The notes: a model not told the origin generated them from the letters alone. DNA of 64,000 bases from Oscillospiraceae bacterium (GCA_022508895.1 JAFLUH010000001.1:77265-141264), one strand, 5' to 3'. Positions 2,661 through 48,362 are shown, counted from the stretch's first letter. Numbers and translations are program-made.

Positions 2661-2684
2661 AACATATTTTATACAAAATGTCTA
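2656..2684 (-). promoter_or_regulatory. putative sigma-A promoter for tyrA overlapping the sigG stop and terminator
   Basis: minus strand TAGACA-N17-TAAAAT with TG at the extended -10 position. Confidence 0.55.
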
Positions 2685-3452
2685 TATCTGACTTTTAATT
2701 TTATTCAATGCTCCCTTTTCAAGTCTTGAAACCTGTGCCTGACTTATCCCAATTTCATTCGCCACCTCTACCTGCGTCTTTCCCTGAAAAAAACGAAGAT
2801 TTAGTATTTTCTTTTCCCTCTGTCCGAGATTAAGGATAGCGTCCTTTAATGCAATTTCATTGAGCCAGTTTATGTCATTGTTTTTGTCTCCTACCTGATC
2901 CATAACATACACTGTGTCCCCCGACTCGGAAAATATGGGCTCGTAAAGTGAAACAGGTTCACTGATAGCCTCCAGTGCAACCACAACATCCTGTGTTTTT
3001 GCATCTATTTCTTTAGCTATCTCATCAATGGTGGGTTCAGCGGAAGCCTGACTTGTCAGCTTTTCCTTTGCCTGCATTGCCTTATAGGCAAGGTCTCTGA
3101 GAGATCTTGATATTCTCATGGAGCTGTTGTCCCTCAAAAAACGTCGTATCTCTCCGATTATCATAGGAACTGCATAAGTACTGAAACGCACATTCAGCGA
3201 AAGGTCAAAGTTGTCTATTGCTTTGATAAGTCCGATCACTCCGACCTGAAAAAGATCGTCAGGATTTTCTCCACGACCCGAAAAGCGCTGTATAACGCTG
3301 AGTACAAGGCGCAAATTGCCGTTTATAAGCTCTTCGCGGGCTTTTTCATCTCCATTTTGTATTTTTTTCAGCAGCTCAGTTTTTTCACTTTCTTTCAGAA
3401 CTTTCAGTTTAGAAGTGTTTACACCGCTGATTTCGACCTTGTTATAATACAA
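2682..3452 (-). CDS. sigG: RNA polymerase sporulation sigma factor G
   Basis: N-terminus YNKVEISGVNTSKLKVL, GNLRLVLSVIQRF, FSTYAVPMIIGEIRR; TTG start; directly downstream of sigE. Confidence 0.97.
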   Translation of the reverse strand: MYYNKVEISGVNTSKLKVLKESEKTELLKKIQNGDEKAREELINGNLRLVLSVIQRFSGRGENPDDLFQVGVIGLIKAIDNFDLSLNVRFSTYAVPMIIGEIRRFLRDNSSMRISRSLRDLAYKAMQAKEKLTSQASAEPTIDEIAKEIDAKTQDVVVALEAISEPVSLYEPIFSESGDTVYVMDQVGDKNNDINWLNEIALKDAILNLGQREKKILNLRFFQGKTQVEVANEIGISQAQVSRLEKGALNKIKSQI

Positions 3453-3553: not shown

Positions 3554-4264
3554 TTAGTTACAAAGACGTTCCAGATCCTTTTTCAGACGCTTTATTATCT
3601 TTTTTTCAAGTCTTGATATATAGCTCTGAGATATCCCTATCTCATCTGCTACTTCCTTCTGTGTCATCTCCTTTCCGTTTTTCAGCCCGAATCTCATTTC
3701 CATGATCCTTTTTTCCCGTTCCGGCAGAGCAGAAACAAGCTCTCTCAACAGCTCATGCTCCACCTCATTTTCAATATTGACATTCACTATATCATTTTCA
3801 GTCCCCAAAACATCTGACAGAAGCAGCTCGTTACCGTCCCAGTCCACATTCAGCGGCTCATCTATTGAGATTTCATGCTTATATTGATTGGATTTTCTTA
3901 GAAACATCAATATTTCATTTTCTATACATCTGCTCGCATAGGTGGCGAGCTTTATATTTTTTTCTTTGCTGAAGGTGTTTACGGCTTTAATAAGTCCTAT
4001 GGTGCCGATTGAAATAAGATCCTCCAGTCCTATTCCCGTAGACTCAAATTTTTTCGCTATATAAACAACAAGCCTGAGATTATGTACTATGAGAGCTTCT
4101 CTTGCTTTGTCAAAGTCTGTGTCCATAAGATCAAACACTTCTTTTTCTTCTTCTTTAGTGAGAGGCGGCGGCAGGGTATCCGAGCCGTTGATATAAAGCA
4201 CGGTGCCTGTGTTCTTGATTTTTATCTTTATCAGTATTTTTTCTAATAAAATTCGTGGATTCAT
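3554..4264 (-). CDS. sigE: RNA polymerase sporulation sigma factor E (pro-sigE)
   Basis: pro-sequence then [42 protein letters not shown]; follows spoIIGA. Confidence 0.97.
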
Positions 4265-4291
4265 GGTTTTGTCTCATATCCTTTCGTATTA

Positions 4292-5137
4292 TTACAGCAG
4301 ATTTGGATTGAATATCGCTCCAAACTCATTTTTAATGCCATTTTTTGTAAAGCCTATCAGGGCGTTTACTTCCTTCTTATTCTGACCGTCAATAATTATC
4401 AGTTTATTAGGCTTGAAACATACTGCCAAAGTGTCTCCTGAAACCGTTGAACAGGGAATAAGCCTTATGCCTCGTAAAGATGCACTTTTTTCGTTCATAT
4501 CATCGAGATATGTGAAAATATCTTGCGGACATATATCCGAACAGCATTTTATATCGCAGAATATAACAGGCAGTCCTGTCAAAAAGTCAGTCAACTTGTT
4601 TCCGCTGTCAGGCATTGCGGTAAGTGTGACCTTGCCAATAGAGGTGACGATTTCTATCTGATATTTTTTGTCAAGATCCGACTTTGAATCCAGCACCCGA
4701 CGTATGATCAACAGAATTACATATGATATTGATGTGGACAGTATAACTGCCCAGAATGGAATATCCAGATAAGACACTCCGTTGTTGTAAATCATTCCCA
4801 TCGGAGCGCAAAACAGCCACAGTGCCAGCATTATTCCCGCATATATGCAGTTGATGATAATAAACACCGCCGAGCTTTTAATAAATGTACGGATATTGCC
4901 AAAGCCCAGTGATGCAAATGTGATGATCAAAGAAACTGCTATTTTAAGAGCGATATTCAGTATCAACGGTAATGCAGGCAAAAATATCATCAGAGAAGAC
5001 AACATTCCTGCAATGCTGCCAAGTATACGCCTTGAAGCTGATATTTTTCGGTGCAGAATGCAGCAGGCTCCAACTATTAAGAAATATGTAACATAAAAGT
5101 TCAGCAGCAAAAGAATGTCTATATAAATTACCCGCAT
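4292..5137 (-). CDS. spoIIGA: sigma-E processing aspartic peptidase SpoIIGA
   Basis: VIYIDILLLLNF N-terminus, 5 TM segments, DSGNKL catalytic motif; ATG 5137 after GGTGAT. Confidence 0.93.
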   Translation of the reverse strand: MRVIYIDILLLLNFYVTYFLIVGACCILHRKISASRRILGSIAGMLSSLMIFLPALPLILNIALKIAVSLIITFASLGFGNIRTFIKSSAVFIIINCIYAGIMLALWLFCAPMGMIYNNGVSYLDIPFWAVILSTSISYVILLIIRRVLDSKSDLDKKYQIEIVTSIGKVTLTAMPDSGNKLTDFLTGLPVIFCDIKCCSDICPQDIFTYLDDMNEKSASLRGIRLIPCSTVSGDTLAVCFKPNKLIIIDGQNKKEVNALIGFTKNGIKNEFGAIFNPNLL

Positions 5138-5152
5138 TTGATCACCGATATA

Positions 5153-5371
5153 ATTATAGCAAAAAATGAGCATGAAGCGAAGCGGAATGCGATTCCTCTA
5201 AAGGATAAAATAATCTTAAACATTAAAATCAATTGTTCCTCTTTACTTCGTTTAAGATTATTATAGCAAAGAAGAGCATGAAGCGAAGCGGAATGCGATT
5301 CCTCTAAAGGATAAAATAATCTTAAACATTAAAATCAATTGTTCCTCTTTACTTCGTTTAAGATTATTATA
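5153..5371 (-). repeat. tandem pair of a 106/107-bp element bounded by TATAAT; candidate miniature mobile element
   Basis: 5168-5265 is identical to 5274-5371 (98 bp); ATTATA (TATAAT on minus) at 5153, 5260 and 5366; homologous to 48250-48362. Confidence 0.92.
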
Positions 5372-5399
5372 ATACTTTAAGGTGGAAAAAAATGTCGAA
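5366..5399 (-). promoter_or_regulatory. Spo0A-dependent sigma-A promoter of the spoIIG operon
   Basis: TATAAT (minus, 5366-5371) and a perfect 0A box TGTCGAA at 5393-5399, in reverse orientation and 21 nt away, as in the Bacillus spoIIG promoter. Confidence 0.7.
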
Positions 5400-5552
5400 G
5401 CTGCACCCTATGAAAAATTAGTTTGTCTGTTGTTTGAATTTCACAGAAGCGCCTTATTTATAAGGTTATAATCCTGTCCGTGATGAATAAAGATGTATAA
5501 GGCAACCCTGCACAATGCAGTGTTGCCTAAATATCTCGGAAAGGACAATGAA

Positions 5553-7217
5553 ATGAAAAGAAAAAGCAGTTTTTTCAGGAATACCCTTATATTGTTCGTT
5601 GCGATGTTTATTACTAAAATAATAGGCGCAGTTTTGCGAATACCACTGACAAATATGTTGGGCGGTGTAGGAATGGGGTATTTTTCGACTGCATATAGTT
5701 TTTTTAATCCGGTTTATACCGTTCTTGCTGCCGGGCTTCCCATAATTGTCACAAAACTTACAGCCCAGAGTGTTTCCTGCAAAAAATATAAAGAAACACG
5801 AAAGATAAAAAATGCAGCTCTTATTATCTCTTTAGGGGCAGGCCTGTTGGGAACCGTTTTTATGCTTGTGTTTGCGGCTCCATTCGCAAATTTTGCCGCA
5901 AGCTCTCCGGAAAGCCTTTGGTCGGTATTGGCAATTGCTCCTTCTGTGATTTTTTGCTGTCTTGCTGCAGCTTACAGGGGATATTATGAGGGACTGAGCA
6001 ATATGATGCCAACTGCTGTTTCACAGGTTGTAGAATCGGTTATAAAAGCGGCGATGGGTTTGGGCTTGTCGTATGTTGTACTGCATTTAGGGGCACAGGG
6101 GATTATCTCACAGGAAAAAACGCTGCCTTATGCTGCTGCTGCCGCTGTATTGGGCGTTACCTTCGGTGAATTTTGCGGAACATTGTTTCTTATAATACGC
6201 AGCAGGTTCCTTAAGGATTCTATCACTGAATATGAGTTGAAACTAAGCATTGAACCGCCGCGCACAAGGGAATTGATAAGGAAAATAATCATTGAGTCTA
6301 TTCCTATTTCCTTAGGTGCAGTGGTTATAAACATAGGATCGTTTATAGATCTTCTCACTATATCTTTCGGTATACAGAAAAGCTTATACGAGAATCAAAC
6401 TTATTTTATTGAGCAATATCCCATGGCGATATCGGAGGCAGGTGCCGATCTTTTTGGAAATTTTGTTTACGGAAGCTATACAGGTATTGTGTTGTCGATT
6501 TTTATGATAATTACGTCTATGACTGCACTTGTAGGGAAAAGCTCTTTGCCAAGTATTGCTGCTGCCTGTGAATGTGGACGAAGCGGGGAAGTAGAACGTC
6601 ATGTCAGTATTTTGCTTGGCAGCATTTTTGTGATAGGTATGCCGCTGTGTTTTTCGCTGAGCGTATTATCCGAGCCTGTTTTAATGCTGTTATATCCCGT
6701 CCGCATGGCGGAGGTCAGCGTAAGTACTCTGCCGCTTTCTGTGCTGTGCATCGGAGGCGTTCCAATAGCATTATGCGGAGCTCTTTTTTCTGTTTTTCAG
6801 GCGGTAGGCCGTTCGGATCTCCCCATAAAGCTGATGATGGCCGGTTCTGCGCTGAAGCTTGTGCTGAATCTGATTTTGCTTAATATTCCTCAGCTGTCGC
6901 TTTGCGGAGCGGCTATCTCAACAGTGTCCTCCCACATTTTGGTCATGATGCTTGGAATAAGCTTATTGCGTAATTCCTTGGGAATAAAATGCAGAATATT
7001 TTCTCTGTTTATTAGACCTGCTTTTGCTTCCCTGGTCTGTGCCGCTGCTGCCGTATTTTCTTACTATTACATGTTTGATAATCTCCATTCCGTTATAAGA
7101 ATGGGTCTCACTGTCATAGCGGGAGGAGCCGTTTACATAATTCTCCTTCTTTTGTTAGACAAAAAAATGGTTGATTTGATCATTGGACGTGGGGTCAAAA
7201 AAACTGCAGACGGTTGA
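5553..7217 (+). CDS. spoVB: SpoVB/MurJ-like MOP-family lipid II flippase (polysaccharide biosynthesis protein)
   Basis: TKIIGAVLRIPLTNMLGGVGMGY, AYRGYYEGLSNMMPTAVSQVVE motifs; about 14 TM; start at 5553 after GGAAAGGA. Confidence 0.8.
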   Translation: MKRKSSFFRNTLILFVAMFITKIIGAVLRIPLTNMLGGVGMGYFSTAYSFFNPVYTVLAAGLPIIVTKLTAQSVSCKKYKETRKIKNAALIISLGAGLLGTVFMLVFAAPFANFAASSPESLWSVLAIAPSVIFCCLAAAYRGYYEGLSNMMPTAVSQVVESVIKAAMGLGLSYVVLHLGAQGIISQEKTLPYAAAAAVLGVTFGEFCGTLFLIIRSRFLKDSITEYELKLSIEPPRTRELIRKIIIESIPISLGAVVINIGSFIDLLTISFGIQKSLYENQTYFIEQYPMAISEAGADLFGNFVYGSYTGIVLSIFMIITSMTALVGKSSLPSIAAACECGRSGEVERHVSILLGSIFVIGMPLCFSLSVLSEPVLMLLYPVRMAEVSVSTLPLSVLCIGGVPIALCGALFSVFQAVGRSDLPIKLMMAGSALKLVLNLILLNIPQLSLCGAAISTVSSHILVMMLGISLLRNSLGIKCRIFSLFIRPAFASLVCAAAAVFSYYYMFDNLHSVIRMGLTVIAGGAVYIILLLLLDKKMVDLIIGRGVKKTADG

Positions 7218-12296: not shown

Positions 12297-13157
12297 ATGA
12301 ATATAATAGAAGTAAAAAATCTGGAATTTGAGTATCCCATAACCGATGATGAAGGCAACGTTGTCGGTGGAAATAAGGTTTTAAAAGACATAAGTCTGGA
12401 AATACCAAAGGGACAGTTTCTTGCTATACTCGGTCATAACGGAAGCGGGAAATCTACACTTGCCAAGCACTTCAACGGCATTTTGCTGGGGAATTCGGGT
12501 AAGGTTTTTGTTAATGGTATAGATACTGCTGATGACGATAGGATATACGACGTGCGGCAGACCGTAGGAATGGTGTTTCAAAATCCCGATAACCAGTTGG
12601 TTGCGACCATTGTAGAAGAGGATGTGGCTTTTGCGCCCGAAAACTTAGGATTGCCTCCTGAACAGATACGAGAGCGTGTGGACGAGGCGCTTAATGCGGT
12701 GGATATGTACAAGTACCGTCTACACTCTGCCCATCAGCTTTCCGGCGGACAAAAACAGCGTATTGCAATTGCAGGCGTTATAGCTATGCGTCCTGAGTGC
12801 ATCGTTCTTGACGAGCCTACGGCAATGCTTGATCCAAAAGGCAGAAAATCCATAATGAAAACCATAAAGCATCTTAACAGTCAGTTCGGAATAACTATAG
12901 TGCTGATAACTCATTACATGGACGAAGCCGCACAGGCGGAGCGTGTTGTGGTTATGGACGGCGGCAGGATAATAATGGACGACGTGCCGCAAAAGATATT
13001 TTCAAAGGTGGACAAGCTGACAGAAGTGGGACTGGACGTGCCGCAAGTGACGCAGCTTGCATACGAGTTGAAAAAAGAGGGGATCGACATCTCCCTTGAA
13101 GTGCTTACCGAGGAGGATTGCCTTAACGAGCTTTTAAGGGTTGCAGACAGAAAATGA
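12297..13157 (+). CDS. ecfA1: ECF transporter ATPase A1
   Basis: [34 protein letters not shown]; start at 12297. Confidence 0.95.
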
Positions 13158-13172
13158 TTATAGGTAGAACAA

Positions 13173-14036
13173 ATGAATGCGATAGAAACAAAAAATCTGA
13201 CATATAAATACAGTGTAGGAACGCCTTTTGAAACCACTGCCGTCAACGACGTAAGCGTATGTATCGAGCAGGGCGAATTTGTAGGTGTTATCGGTCATAC
13301 CGGAAGTGGAAAATCAACGCTGATACAGCATTTGAACGGACTTTTGAAACAGACTTCCGGTGAAGTCCTGATAAACGGCAGGAACATTTGGAGCAAGGAC
13401 GTAAATATAAAAGATATACGATTTGAAGCCGGACTTGTATTCCAGTATTCCGAGTATCAGCTTTTCGAGGAAACAGTCTATAAGGATATAGCCTTTGGTC
13501 CGAAAAATATGGGACTTTCCGAGGAGGAAATCGACAGGTGCGTAAGAAAAGCAGCAGAACAAATGGGCTTGGACGAGGAGCTGCTGGAGCGTTCTCCCTT
13601 TGACCTTTCAGGCGGGCAGAAACGCCGCGTGGCATTAGCAGGCGTTATAGCAATGGAGCCTAAGATACTTATACTTGACGAGCCTGCCGCAGGACTTGAC
13701 CCTGCAGGGCGTGACAGGGTGCTGGAGGAAATAAGCAACTACCACAAAAATTCCGGCACAACAATTTTATTGGTCTCCCACTCAATGGAGGATATCGTAA
13801 AATATGCAAAAAAAGTTCTGGTGATGAACAAGGGTGAGCTTTTTTGCTATGAAGATGTGGACAAGGTGTTCTCTATGGCGGAGGAGCTTCAGAAGATAGG
13901 GCTTGATGTGCCTCAGATAACAAAACTGGCACAGCTTTTAAATAAAAACGGAATAGATATCGGAAAAGATATTTATACAGTAGAGCGGGCAAAAGAAAGA
14001 CTTCTGAAAATAATAAAAGGAAACACTGATGCTTAA
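13173..14036 (+). CDS. ecfA2: ECF transporter ATPase A2
   Basis: GHTGSGKST, SPFDLSGGQKRR, LDEPAAGLDP. Confidence 0.95.
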   Translation: MNAIETKNLTYKYSVGTPFETTAVNDVSVCIEQGEFVGVIGHTGSGKSTLIQHLNGLLKQTSGEVLINGRNIWSKDVNIKDIRFEAGLVFQYSEYQLFEETVYKDIAFGPKNMGLSEEEIDRCVRKAAEQMGLDEELLERSPFDLSGGQKRRVALAGVIAMEPKILILDEPAAGLDPAGRDRVLEEISNYHKNSGTTILLVSHSMEDIVKYAKKVLVMNKGELFCYEDVDKVFSMAEELQKIGLDVPQITKLAQLLNKNGIDIGKDIYTVERAKERLLKIIKGNTDA

Positions 14037-37511: not shown

Positions 37512-37586
37512 AACTTTAATACCAAAAGCATAAAAATGCTGCATGGATTGTATGAATAAACCGCTTGATATAACAGGAGAATTGCT

Positions 37587-37943
37587 ATGTATAGTGTAAG
37601 CTCGGTATCTTTGCAAAACATTTATGCTCCCTCGGCTGCTGCAAGATCATCTTTAAAGAAGGACGGCAGTGCTGCATTTGATTACGAGCTGTACGGAAGA
37701 GTTAATAGCGACACCACGGCAGAACGCATTATTGACGATATGACTGCCGCAGGTATTTTCAAGACCGAAGAAGAGGAGGAAGAGAAGGGAAAAGCCGTTG
37801 ACGAGCTTCTGAAAGCTATAAAGGAACATCAGAAGACTTGGAAAGAAGAAGTGTTCGGCATAAAGAAAAGCGGGCTTACTGTCGAAGAAGTAAAAGAAGT
37901 TTTATCTGAGCTAAAATGTACCAATAGAGTGACAGCGAAATGA
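37587..37943 (+). CDS. hypothetical protein, short paralog of the downstream gene
   Basis: AGGAGA RBS; shares N- and C-terminal motifs with 37966-38967. Confidence 0.8.
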   Translation: MYSVSSVSLQNIYAPSAAARSSLKKDGSAAFDYELYGRVNSDTTAERIIDDMTAAGIFKTEEEEEEKGKAVDELLKAIKEHQKTWKEEVFGIKKSGLTVEEVKEVLSELKCTNRVTAK

Positions 37944-37965
37944 ATCCGGTTTAAGGAGAATTGCT

Positions 37966-38967
37966 ATGTACAATATAAGCGCGTTACCTTCACAAAATGT
38001 TTATGCTCCCCCGGTAGCTTCAAAAAAGGCGTTCAACGCTGCATTTGACACTGTATTTGCGCCTTCGGCAGCGGAAAAATATGAGCAAACAGGCGGCAGT
38101 GAAATTACTGCTGATAATCTTTATGATATTCTTGCAGAGAGAGCTAAAACCTCTGCGGAAAAGCTGGCAGAGTATGATTTCAGCGATATGTATGTAAAGT
38201 CGGCGGCACACCAATTTCAATTAACAGAATCACAAAGAAATGCGATAAGGTGGAACGGATTTGAAACATTTCATAGTATAACCATGTCGCTAAAACGTGA
38301 AAGTTGGGATGCAGCTAAGAATGAAGACTGCATTCTAGTTCCAATCGGTCCCGGAGAGCTTCCCCAATTTATGGACGAAATTATGCAGGCATTGTCCGAC
38401 GGAATGTCTTTAACTGATGCGTTAAACAATAAAATTGAAGACCTCAAAAATAACAATATTTCTTTTGATGGCAAGGATTTCTTTTTTATAAATCCTACAA
38501 ATGGAGATGTAGTGGGGTGTGATGCAAAGGGCAGAGGTTTCTTTGAATATGGTGAACGCTTTGCTGATTATGATGCTGCTTTGGAATTAGCTGATGACCT
38601 TGCAACGTTTTTTAGATATGTTGCTTTTCCGCAGGAGGGTGATGGCCCTGAAAAAGTTGCGTCACTTATTTCCTACATAAAAGACAAACAGGCATACGCT
38701 AATTACGATCGCTATATTTTTGATGAATCTCCGAATGAAATCATGGGCATGGACAACAACGCTTATGCAAATCTGATCATTGCCAATCTGACCGCCGCAG
38801 GTGTTCTCAAGGGCGAAGATGATGAGGAAGAAGAGGAAGAATCTATTGATATGCTTATGGAGGCGGTCAAGGAGCATCAGGAAACTTTGAGGGAAGATAT
38901 GATAGACAGAGAGAAAAGCGAGCTTGCTATGGAAGAAATCAAAGAAATTTTATACAGCATGGCTTAA
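37966..38967 (+). CDS. hypothetical acidic protein, long paralog of the upstream gene
   Basis: identical 17-bp RBS/start region; shared MYxxS..QNxYAP start and TAAG..EEEE...KEHQ C-terminal module. Confidence 0.82.
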   Translation: MYNISALPSQNVYAPPVASKKAFNAAFDTVFAPSAAEKYEQTGGSEITADNLYDILAERAKTSAEKLAEYDFSDMYVKSAAHQFQLTESQRNAIRWNGFETFHSITMSLKRESWDAAKNEDCILVPIGPGELPQFMDEIMQALSDGMSLTDALNNKIEDLKNNNISFDGKDFFFINPTNGDVVGCDAKGRGFFEYGERFADYDAALELADDLATFFRYVAFPQEGDGPEKVASLISYIKDKQAYANYDRYIFDESPNEIMGMDNNAYANLIIANLTAAGVLKGEDDEEEEEESIDMLMEAVKEHQETLREDMIDREKSELAMEEIKEILYSMA

Positions 38968-48226: not shown

Positions 48227-48255
48227 TTGTAAGATTTAATGAAATATGCTATAAT
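48227..48255 (+). promoter_or_regulatory. sigma-A promoter of hom
   Basis: TTGTAA-N17-TATAAT with extended TG. Confidence 0.75.
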
Positions 48256-48362
48256 AATCTAAAAATAAATATAGTGGTTTATATGATTTTGAATTTTTAG
48301 ATTATTTTAGCGTTCAGCGGAATCACATTCCGCTTCGCTTCATGCTCTATTTATGCTATAAT
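48250..48362 (+). repeat. third copy of the 107-bp TATAAT-bounded element
   Basis: 90/113 ungapped identity to the reverse complement of 5153-5265; flanked by direct repeat TATGCTATAAT (48245-48255, 48352-48362). Confidence 0.9.

Follow-up and report, generated by a model that had tools for sequence, protein, structure and literature searches.

A family of small non-coding repeats situated at sigma-A -10 boxes, doubled in the spoIIG promoter of an Oscillospiraceae bacterium

Introduction

What lies between the spoIIG promoter of this bacterium and its first gene, and how did it get there? In the 64,000-nucleotide stretch analysed here (Oscillospiraceae bacterium, GCA_022508895.1 JAFLUH010000001.1:77265-141264; hereafter the window), a 219-bp tandem repeat at positions 5153-5371 sits between the -10 box and the ribosome-binding site of spoIIGA. 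A preliminary description had read it as a miniature element that integrates at promoter -10 hexamers, with TATAAT either duplicated as a target site or shared as a core by element and target, and had derived the dimer from a second integration. The analysis reported here suggests that the stretch probably consists of two tandem, non-coding and non-autonomous elements of ~107 bp, which would be site- and orientation-specific for sigma-A -10 boxes.

Results

Layout of the spoIIG region

The native spoIIG promoter reads on the minus strand (as do all features of the repeat described below), with a Spo0A box (TTCGACA, 5393-5399) 21 nt upstream of the -10 hexamer TATAAT (5366-5371), which is the insertion point and left core of the repeat. 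Two head-to-tail units then separate this promoter from the spoIIGA start, scored by Tandem Repeats Finder as 2.1 copies with a period of 106 and 98% matches over 5153-5371. The distal unit of 106 nt (5260-5365) comprises the arms of a predicted hairpin 1 (5368-5356 and 5327-5315), an internal anti -10 segment (5320-5309), a predicted hairpin 2 (about 5308-5268), and the 3' end TGCTATAAT (5268-5260). The proximal unit of 107 nt (5153-5259) has its hairpin 1 arms at 5262-5250 and 5221-5209, its anti -10 segment at 5214-5203, and its 3' end TGCTATAAT at 5161-5153 as a regenerated extended -10 box adjoining spoIIGA; it is followed by TATATC, the ribosome-binding site GGTGAT (5146-5141), CAA, and the spoIIGA start codon ATG (5137-5135). 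As first described, a T-rich tail (TTCTTTGC vs ATTTTTTGC) is the sole difference between the two units, which share 98 identical nt, and TATAAT is found once per junction, at 5371-5366, 5265-5260, and 5158-5153.

A Pfam scan placed spoIIGA (Peptidase_U4) at 4292-5137 on the minus strand, with sigE (3554-4264) and sigG (2682-3452) downstream and a SpoVB-like gene as the divergent neighbour. The ATG at 5137 and not 5138 was taken as the start since the Peptidase_U4 match begins two residues later, and it is also backed by relatives, which carry GGTGAT-N3-ATG at spoIIGA. The frame stays open further upstream to an ATG at 5173 inside the proximal unit (5135-5173, minus strand), and the product is called as 293 aa in L096 and 281 aa in other assemblies. 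Two further direct-repeat pairs were recorded in the window, one of 70 nt with 80% identity and 379 bp apart (37575-38023), which is a paralogous gene pair, and one of 110 nt with 70% identity and 867 bp apart (12726-13702).

Copies and distribution

A BLAST search of the own genome, a 2.37-Mb draft, returned about 20 further copies (20 to 31 matches, 74-85% identity), which are spread over many contigs and about 16 loci besides spoIIG. A third, diverged copy with 80% identity lies in the window itself (48250-48362, plus strand), at the -10 box of the homoserine dehydrogenase promoter TTGTAA-N17-TATAAT, and is bordered on both sides by TATGCTATAAT. Further tandem dimers were found at C9, C70, and C107, the unit count at C107 being uncertain because a run of N breaks the array at C107:18368-18477; another such run breaks the flank at C46 upstream of 9270, and both may be scaffold gaps. 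A covariance model built from 17 own-genome copies recovered the family in 21 of the 108 species of the genus, i.e., in 20 species besides that of the window, and in none of the 178 other genera sampled from the order. The unit is hence a dispersed repeat. The congener G095 held at least 144 matches at about 35 loci (at least 35), mostly in head-to-tail arrays of 2-7 units with a period of 104 bp, and partial matches in this genome were array edges.

A longer autonomous version with the same ends was sought, and solely internally deleted variants were found: C17:3190-3263 is without hairpin 1 and consists of the promoter, 16 nt, hairpin 2, and TGCCATAAT, and C128:5788-5877 is without the inner part of hairpin 2. 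Both short variants remain between the -10 box and the gene. A separate ~180-bp repeat with 81-91% identity occurs a few hundred bases from several arrays (L081:844-1027, L086:2068-2253, and L093:3208-3385 in G095; L063:735-906 in G096). The unit at C102:20400-20547 (minus strand) is followed by at least 400 nt without a 60-aa ORF, a GC-rich, structured-looking stretch (...GGTCGAAACCTGCCCCCGGAAAGGGGGG...) without an Rfam match at the gathering threshold; it may represent an RNA or leader that lacks annotation. A scan of viral contigs with the conserved core motif found no carried element, its single match being a chance one in coding sequence. For the purE protein and the LytTR regulator, exact-protein look-ups turned up no further strains.

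Position at -10 boxes

The element proper spans AATCTYAAAC to CTCTTTTTATGnTATAAT and starts directly 3' of a pre-existing (TRTGn)TATAAT, and every own-genome copy terminates in ...CTCTTTTTATGnTATAAT, its own TRTGnTATAAT. In all but one of the host-flanked own copies, the unit begins at a TATAAT that a TTGnnn hexamer precedes by 17 bp. The spacing is 16 bp after a weak hexamer at C152, and 21 nt after the Spo0A box at spoIIG; the exception, C107:8209, is without a recognisable -35 and its flank nonetheless reads TGATATAAT. The claim that the unit sits at promoter -10 hexamers is therefore supported, as nearly all host-flanked copies lie exactly there. Copies read in the same direction as the gene that follows, whose start is 7-180 nt away, and the genes behind them are functionally unrelated: spoIIGA, hom, dus-like, ddl, a LytTR regulator, CdAMP_rec, an XRE regulator, glmS, pyrC, metA, CheV-like, purE, and a phosphoesterase. 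This arrangement fits a promoter-targeted repeat and not a regulon-specific leader.

The flanking direct repeat is always one motif, (TATGn)TATAAT, of varying length (6 bp at spoIIG, 9 bp at C152, 11 bp at C46). Both TATAAT boxes are nearly invariant despite ~20% overall divergence among copies, and a TG at -15/-14 was present in 78% of the occupied promoters vs 44% of all TTGnnn-N17-TATAAT sites in the genome. The earlier proposal of a TATAAT core shared by element and target is refined here: the hexamer is usually part of a longer shared core of 9-11 bp, TGnTATAAT or TATGnTATAAT, in which the variable n is matched between target and element. The spoIIG site is atypical as a target, reading GTAT|TATAAT vs TTGC|TATAAT in the element, with the hexamer alone in common.

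Fold and co-variation

RNAalifold predicted two hairpins from 17 own copies. Hairpin 1 is a 13-bp AT-rich stem with a left arm that begins inside TATAAT, while hairpin 2 is longer and irregular, has a base in which TTTTAn'CG pairs with TGnTA of the 3' core, and is followed by the T-run. A loop motif, AAAGAGGAA, and a second motif, AGAGGAA, are conserved. The core finds its complement in an internal segment, ATTAT-T/G-TAn'CG, which can pair either with the 3' end or with TGnTA of the left flank; in the latter case hairpin 1 is lengthened across the -10 box.

An alignment of 75 units from many genomes, which was fitted to the model and so favours the structure, had 15 of 29 pairs changed on both sides and 90.7% of cells paired, vs 36-52% with the partner slid, and none of 500 shuffles reached the observed pairing values. 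The much lower values of the slid controls and the agreement of the independent 17-sequence result argue for a real hairpin signal; the two hairpins are maintained by compensatory substitutions. The target n, the 3'-end n, and the internal n' co-vary: the n'-n pairs counted were CG 41, UA 21, AU 5, and GC 3, and the left-flank n was complementary to n' in 25 of 35 host-flanked units (permutation mean 13.2; 0 of 100,000 permutations reached 25), statistics that are inflated by subfamily descent, as the copies are not independent. The spoIIG units are outliers here (n' is T, 3' n is C); spoIIG units of other strains carry G and C, so the n'-n pair was intact ancestrally. This three-way co-variation points to recognition by base pairing.

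The fold includes several conserved G-U pairs and is specific for the sense strand. Single-stranded DNA folds of three host-flanked copies had hairpin 1 running into the flank across the -10 box, and the left arm covers this box and the first 4-10 nt beyond, so that RNA starting from that promoter would be without most of the arm. The predicted folds hence favour a role in single-stranded DNA or in read-through RNA.

Empty and filled alleles

Empty alleles were found in relatives at two strain-level loci and at an IS200-like tnpA promoter. At the CdAMP_rec gene promoter (C46), a unit of 108 bp lies between copies of TATGGTATAAT in the own genome and four of six other assemblies of the species; the two empty alleles read ...AACGTAATATGGTATAAT|ATTTGTAAAT..., with exactly 108 bp absent and the 11-mer TATGGTATAAT present once. 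At the XRE-HTH gene promoter the unit is flanked by TGTTATAAT, a repeat common to the element, and two of three other assemblies are empty (...CACAATGTGTTATAAT|AATGGCAT...). Both strain-level empty sites already carry the n of the element (G and T). The IS200-like tnpA promoter is empty in the congener G123 (...CCGATATGGTATAAT|AGTAACGG...), and seven examined G095 copies of that IS have 1-7 units at exactly this point. Strains also differ just downstream of the CdAMP_rec unit, by a tandem duplication of 15 bp (TTATCACAACACAAT) and by a short block of substitutions (C46:9466-9520 vs L114 and L115), the duplication being a second indel polymorphism of that leader.

At spoIIG, the number of units varies by strain (one in L095, two in L096), and the single unit of L095 has lost 15 nt from the hairpin 1 3' arm. 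In six other species, no copy of the unit lies upstream of spoIIGA: five have only a short or unrelated leader, one of them longer, and the sixth is without a recognisable promoter. Three of the six read TTCGACA-N21/22-TATAAT, ~16 nt, and GGTGAT-ATG, which is the window minus both units and thus the tidy short-leader promoter that had been predicted from removing them, albeit in distant species with SpoIIGA 58-60% identical. The expected series of spoIIGA alleles was accordingly recovered in part, with one unit in L095 and none in other species, while all strains seen within the species carry units.

Doubling, loss, and array turnover

The second spoIIG unit derives from the first, because the two share 98 identical nt whereas the nearest other genomic copy is 85% identical to them, and because their difference is limited to the T-run, which is hypervariable between strains. 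The dimer is thus most likely a product of its own neighbour. The second integration proposed earlier, into the rebuilt core, is compatible with this derivation, and so are unequal crossover and slippage. The own-genome copies are old (74-85% identical), and this genome has no near-identical source copy for any polymorphic unit, so the strain polymorphisms may all be precise losses, e.g., by slippage between the 9-11-bp direct repeats.

In G095, units are on average 89% identical within arrays vs 86% between loci, with the best cross-locus pairs at 96%, and since the former barely exceeds the latter, exchange or insertion between loci is argued for. The G095 arrays also display a 208-bp higher-order pattern with identical neighbouring units, and in many of them the terminal units are truncated or degenerate. 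Two processes seem to be at work, unequal exchange inside arrays and, between loci, movement or conversion.

Search for a mobilising enzyme and known classes

None of the transposase classes scanned across the 108 species of the genus was associated with the family. Y1 HUH transposases (IS200/IS605, RAYT; PF01797) occur in 7 of 21 carriers and 31 of 108 species, DEDD transposases (IS110; PF01548) in 8 of 21 and 25 of 108, and Y2 transposases (IS91; PF04986) in 1 of 21 and 2 of 108, and all three are absent from the own genome. The absence of transposase genes is weak evidence as such, because metagenome-assembled genomes lose mobile genes. A recurrent flanking enzyme gene in the style of RAYT was sought beside the units, and the IS200-like element alone recurred. 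The search for a transposase gene that the preliminary description had proposed lent support to none of these classes.

The further reading of the unit as lacking terminal inverted repeats and an ORF, and as no classical MITE, was confirmed. Its inverted repeats are internal hairpins only, there is no complementarity between the left end (AATCTC...) and the right (...CTCTTTTTATGn), and no ORF is conserved; a small peptide was rejected since neither ATG nor frame is conserved. A classical MITE (DDE derivative) was rejected for want of such repeats and because the flanking repeat is a fixed motif of varying length and no arbitrary target site duplication. An IS110/IS1111 derivative was rejected as DEDD genes are missing from the own genome and from G095, G056, and G109, the latter three among the richest carriers, and are not enriched among carriers, and an IS91/ISCR rolling-circle element was rejected as Y2 genes occur in only 2 of 108 genomes of the genus. 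By inspection, units have no integron cassette context and their junction shows only a TTATG similarity to the XerD arm; a dif-like site search of the own draft genome defined no clear dif site. Rfam 15 gave no relevant match at E <= 10 over 4000-7000 and none at the gathering threshold in five other loci. A consensus scan called no intrinsic terminator in the units.

G095 also harbours ~15 mostly pseudogenised copies of the IS200-like element, which consists of a left-end hairpin (CCACCGGC..GCCGGTGG) followed by tnpA (L076-L079, L082, L090, L094; G095:C6:116920-117682), and other Y1 hits in this genome, the intact copy included, adjoin arrays. The units are passengers and not ends of this IS, as they occupy the tnpA -10 box inside it, and it has probably spread arrays round the G095 genome.

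Discussion

Relation to known repeats

The BOX elements of Streptococcus pneumoniae, for which no mobilising enzyme is known, are intergenic, modular, and stably folded, with tandem internal units that vary in number. They have no sequence relation to the unit, repeat only boxB, between boxA and boxC, and have no -10 target. IS110/IS1111 elements recognise target and donor by base pairing of a bridge RNA; the unit resembles them in its specific orientation, its lack of terminal inverted repeats, the conserved functional motif that is hit, and a promoter across the joined ends. It differs in that DEDD genes are not enriched in its carriers and in being much shorter than known bridge RNAs. REP/REPIN sequences are judged by a 20-40-nt palindrome, often in inverted pairs, and a single-copy RAYT gene; this class was rejected for units of ~107 nt that are always head-to-tail and have no Y1/RAYT association.

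The units work like the promoter-bearing miniature repeats listed in the literature, namely Correia elements, ERIC, and REPINs (PMC3575422), among which the Correia repeat-enclosed elements of Neisseria (CREE/NEMIS) are promoter-bearing mobile repeats (Nijveen et al. 2012, PMC3575422). Like these, they are non-coding, high-copy, intergenic sequences in the range of ~100-150 bp with outward promoters that rewire neighbouring genes. Correia elements have 26-bp terminal inverted repeats and duplicate a TA target that is not promoter-specific, whereas the units are without such repeats, sit in one orientation at a -10 box that is regenerated, and form head-to-tail arrays. Putative mobile promoters, defined as near-identical upstream regions before unrelated genes (Matus-Garcia, Nijveen and van Passel 2012; PMC3575422), are a broader notion that the units fit operationally, having similar upstream regions before unrelated genes. 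The definition as quoted there (>=80% identity, >=50 nt, -150 to -50; PMC3575422) mostly excludes the -10 box, and that source mentions neither a defined -10 target nor empty sites, a covarying structure, or arrays for any family of such promoters. Full-text literature searches turned up no account of a repeat with the -10 box as its target. The family is apparently undescribed, in line with the first impression that it was not a recognised one and with the missing Rfam match.

A probable mobile element and its possible mechanism

The unit lies 3' of (TRTGn)TATAAT and ends in a copy of the same core, so that the gene keeps an extended -10 box. Under the preferred reading, which I consider probable, it is a non-autonomous element of which every insertion recreates a target, and this explains the head-to-tail arrays with one core per junction. 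Precise loss of the element may occur as well. In this lineage, a single old insertion at spoIIG, shared by every strain seen, would have been doubled.

How the element moves is a more tentative matter. A folded intermediate of single-stranded DNA or RNA may recognise the core through base pairing, upon which a putative trans-acting enzyme would cut and join at or beside TATAAT, inserting and excising the unit; this is a possibility with somewhat less than an even chance. A stronger version, which I regard as doubtful, would make the 107-nt element the representative of a new class of base-pair-programmed mobile DNA with a one-segment guide, ATTAT-T-TAn'CG. Here, the guide in the folded single strand would read both the element end and the TGnTATAAT target of housekeeping promoters, a putative enzyme encoded by the host or a mobile genetic element would perform precise insertion and excision, and a changed n' would retarget the element. 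All four n'/n/target combinations occur in nature.

Alternative explanations

Spread and loss might need no dedicated enzyme at all and proceed by template switching (copy-choice) and slippage on the 9-11-bp TRTGnTATAAT microhomologies, with hairpins as stall sites and arrays growing and shrinking by unequal crossover. Every junction indeed shows a short, perfect direct repeat that the empty site already contains, n has to match just as a homology requirement would predict, and no transposase class co-occurs with the family; the 208-bp periodicity with its identical neighbouring units is typical of unequal exchange, and many array ends have truncated units. However, template switching between loci on 6-11 bp is very rare, while in one genome at least 144 units are spread over at least 35 loci, and the narrow gap between within-array and cross-locus identity in G095 argues for exchange or insertion between loci. 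The spoIIG target moreover has only 6 bp in common with the element, and selected, covarying hairpins with conserved loop motifs suggest a specific recognition partner, which makes this explanation unlikely.

The unit might instead be a functional RNA module kept by host selection, i.e., a small RNA gene or insulating leader and no selfish element, in which a host -10 box, a hairpin RNA, a weak terminator, and a fresh extended -10 box are combined and copy number tunes expression. The strand-specific G-U pairs in the sense direction, the conserved loop motifs, the T-run after hairpin 2, the constraint on both -10 boxes, and the units at the orthologous CdAMP_rec gene and hom in different species all speak for such a module. 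Against this stand the unrelated downstream genes, an IS200-like transposase gene among them, the differences in unit presence between strains, the missing terminator call, and the loss of most of the hairpin 1 left arm from RNA made at the left promoter; the units at orthologous genes of different species also belong to different subfamilies. I therefore rate it as improbable as a replacement for the preferred reading, although the module is compatible with mobility and a rival only on why the element persists.

Far less probable is that the units are PATEs of IS200/IS605 elements, mobilised in trans by a Y1 (HUH) TnpA and inserted 3' of a target that doubles as left cleavage site. They share with PATEs, and with REP/REPIN sequences, the lack of terminal inverted repeats, strand-specific subterminal hairpins, insertion in one orientation 3' of a short conserved target without a classical target site duplication, an internal guide-like segment that pairs with the flank or cleavage sequence, and the possibility of precise excision, and each examined G095 IS200-like copy has units in its left end. 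But the cognate Y1 gene is absent from the own genome and from 14 of 21 carrier genomes, without enrichment in the others, the left-end hairpin of the IS200-like element is unrelated to the unit hairpins, and G017 has seven identical IS200-like copies and zero units. The unit target is also 6-11 bp long and repeated at the right end, and head-to-tail arrays are the rule, both of which set the units apart from PATEs and REP/REPIN sequences.

It is barely credible that the dimer was created by misassembly, or that it is just a native spoIIG leader duplicated in place without any mobile element: short-read assemblers can miscount tandem repeats and the L097 contig breaks exactly at the spoIIG unit boundary, but the two-unit allele was assembled independently, a few SNPs apart, from another metagenome sample (L096), so an artefact is unlikely, and the native-leader reading is effectively refuted by units at about 16 other own loci and in 20 other species and by their absence upstream of spoIIGA in six other species.

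Implications for spoIIG and for promoter evolution

For this bacterium, the doubling puts the Spo0A-dependent promoter 213 bp from the spoIIGA ribosome-binding site, and its transcripts would now have to cross a structured leader of 213 nt. Each unit also provides an extended -10 promoter, TTCGCT-N17-TGCTATAAT, that lacks a Spo0A box, and the proximal TGCTATAAT promoter occupies the former place of the native -10 box, such that spoIIGA-sigE transcription could be partly independent of Spo0A. In Bacillus, pro-sigma-E needs SpoIIR-triggered processing; as this step would still be needed, leaky spoIIGA-sigE transcription may be tolerated. On the practical side, the units break short-read assemblies and mislead gene callers, which make spoIIGA 12 codons too long in L096, with the same long ORF present in the window (5173).

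If the preferred reading is correct, the family would represent a small bacterial repeat with the -10 promoter box itself as its target, creating promoter arrays of variable copy number and spreading between unrelated promoters. The suggested base-pairing mechanism is directly testable and, if confirmed, potentially programmable. Such an element would take over a host -35 or activator site and give the gene a replacement extended -10 box, and genes could thereby be uncoupled from their regulators.
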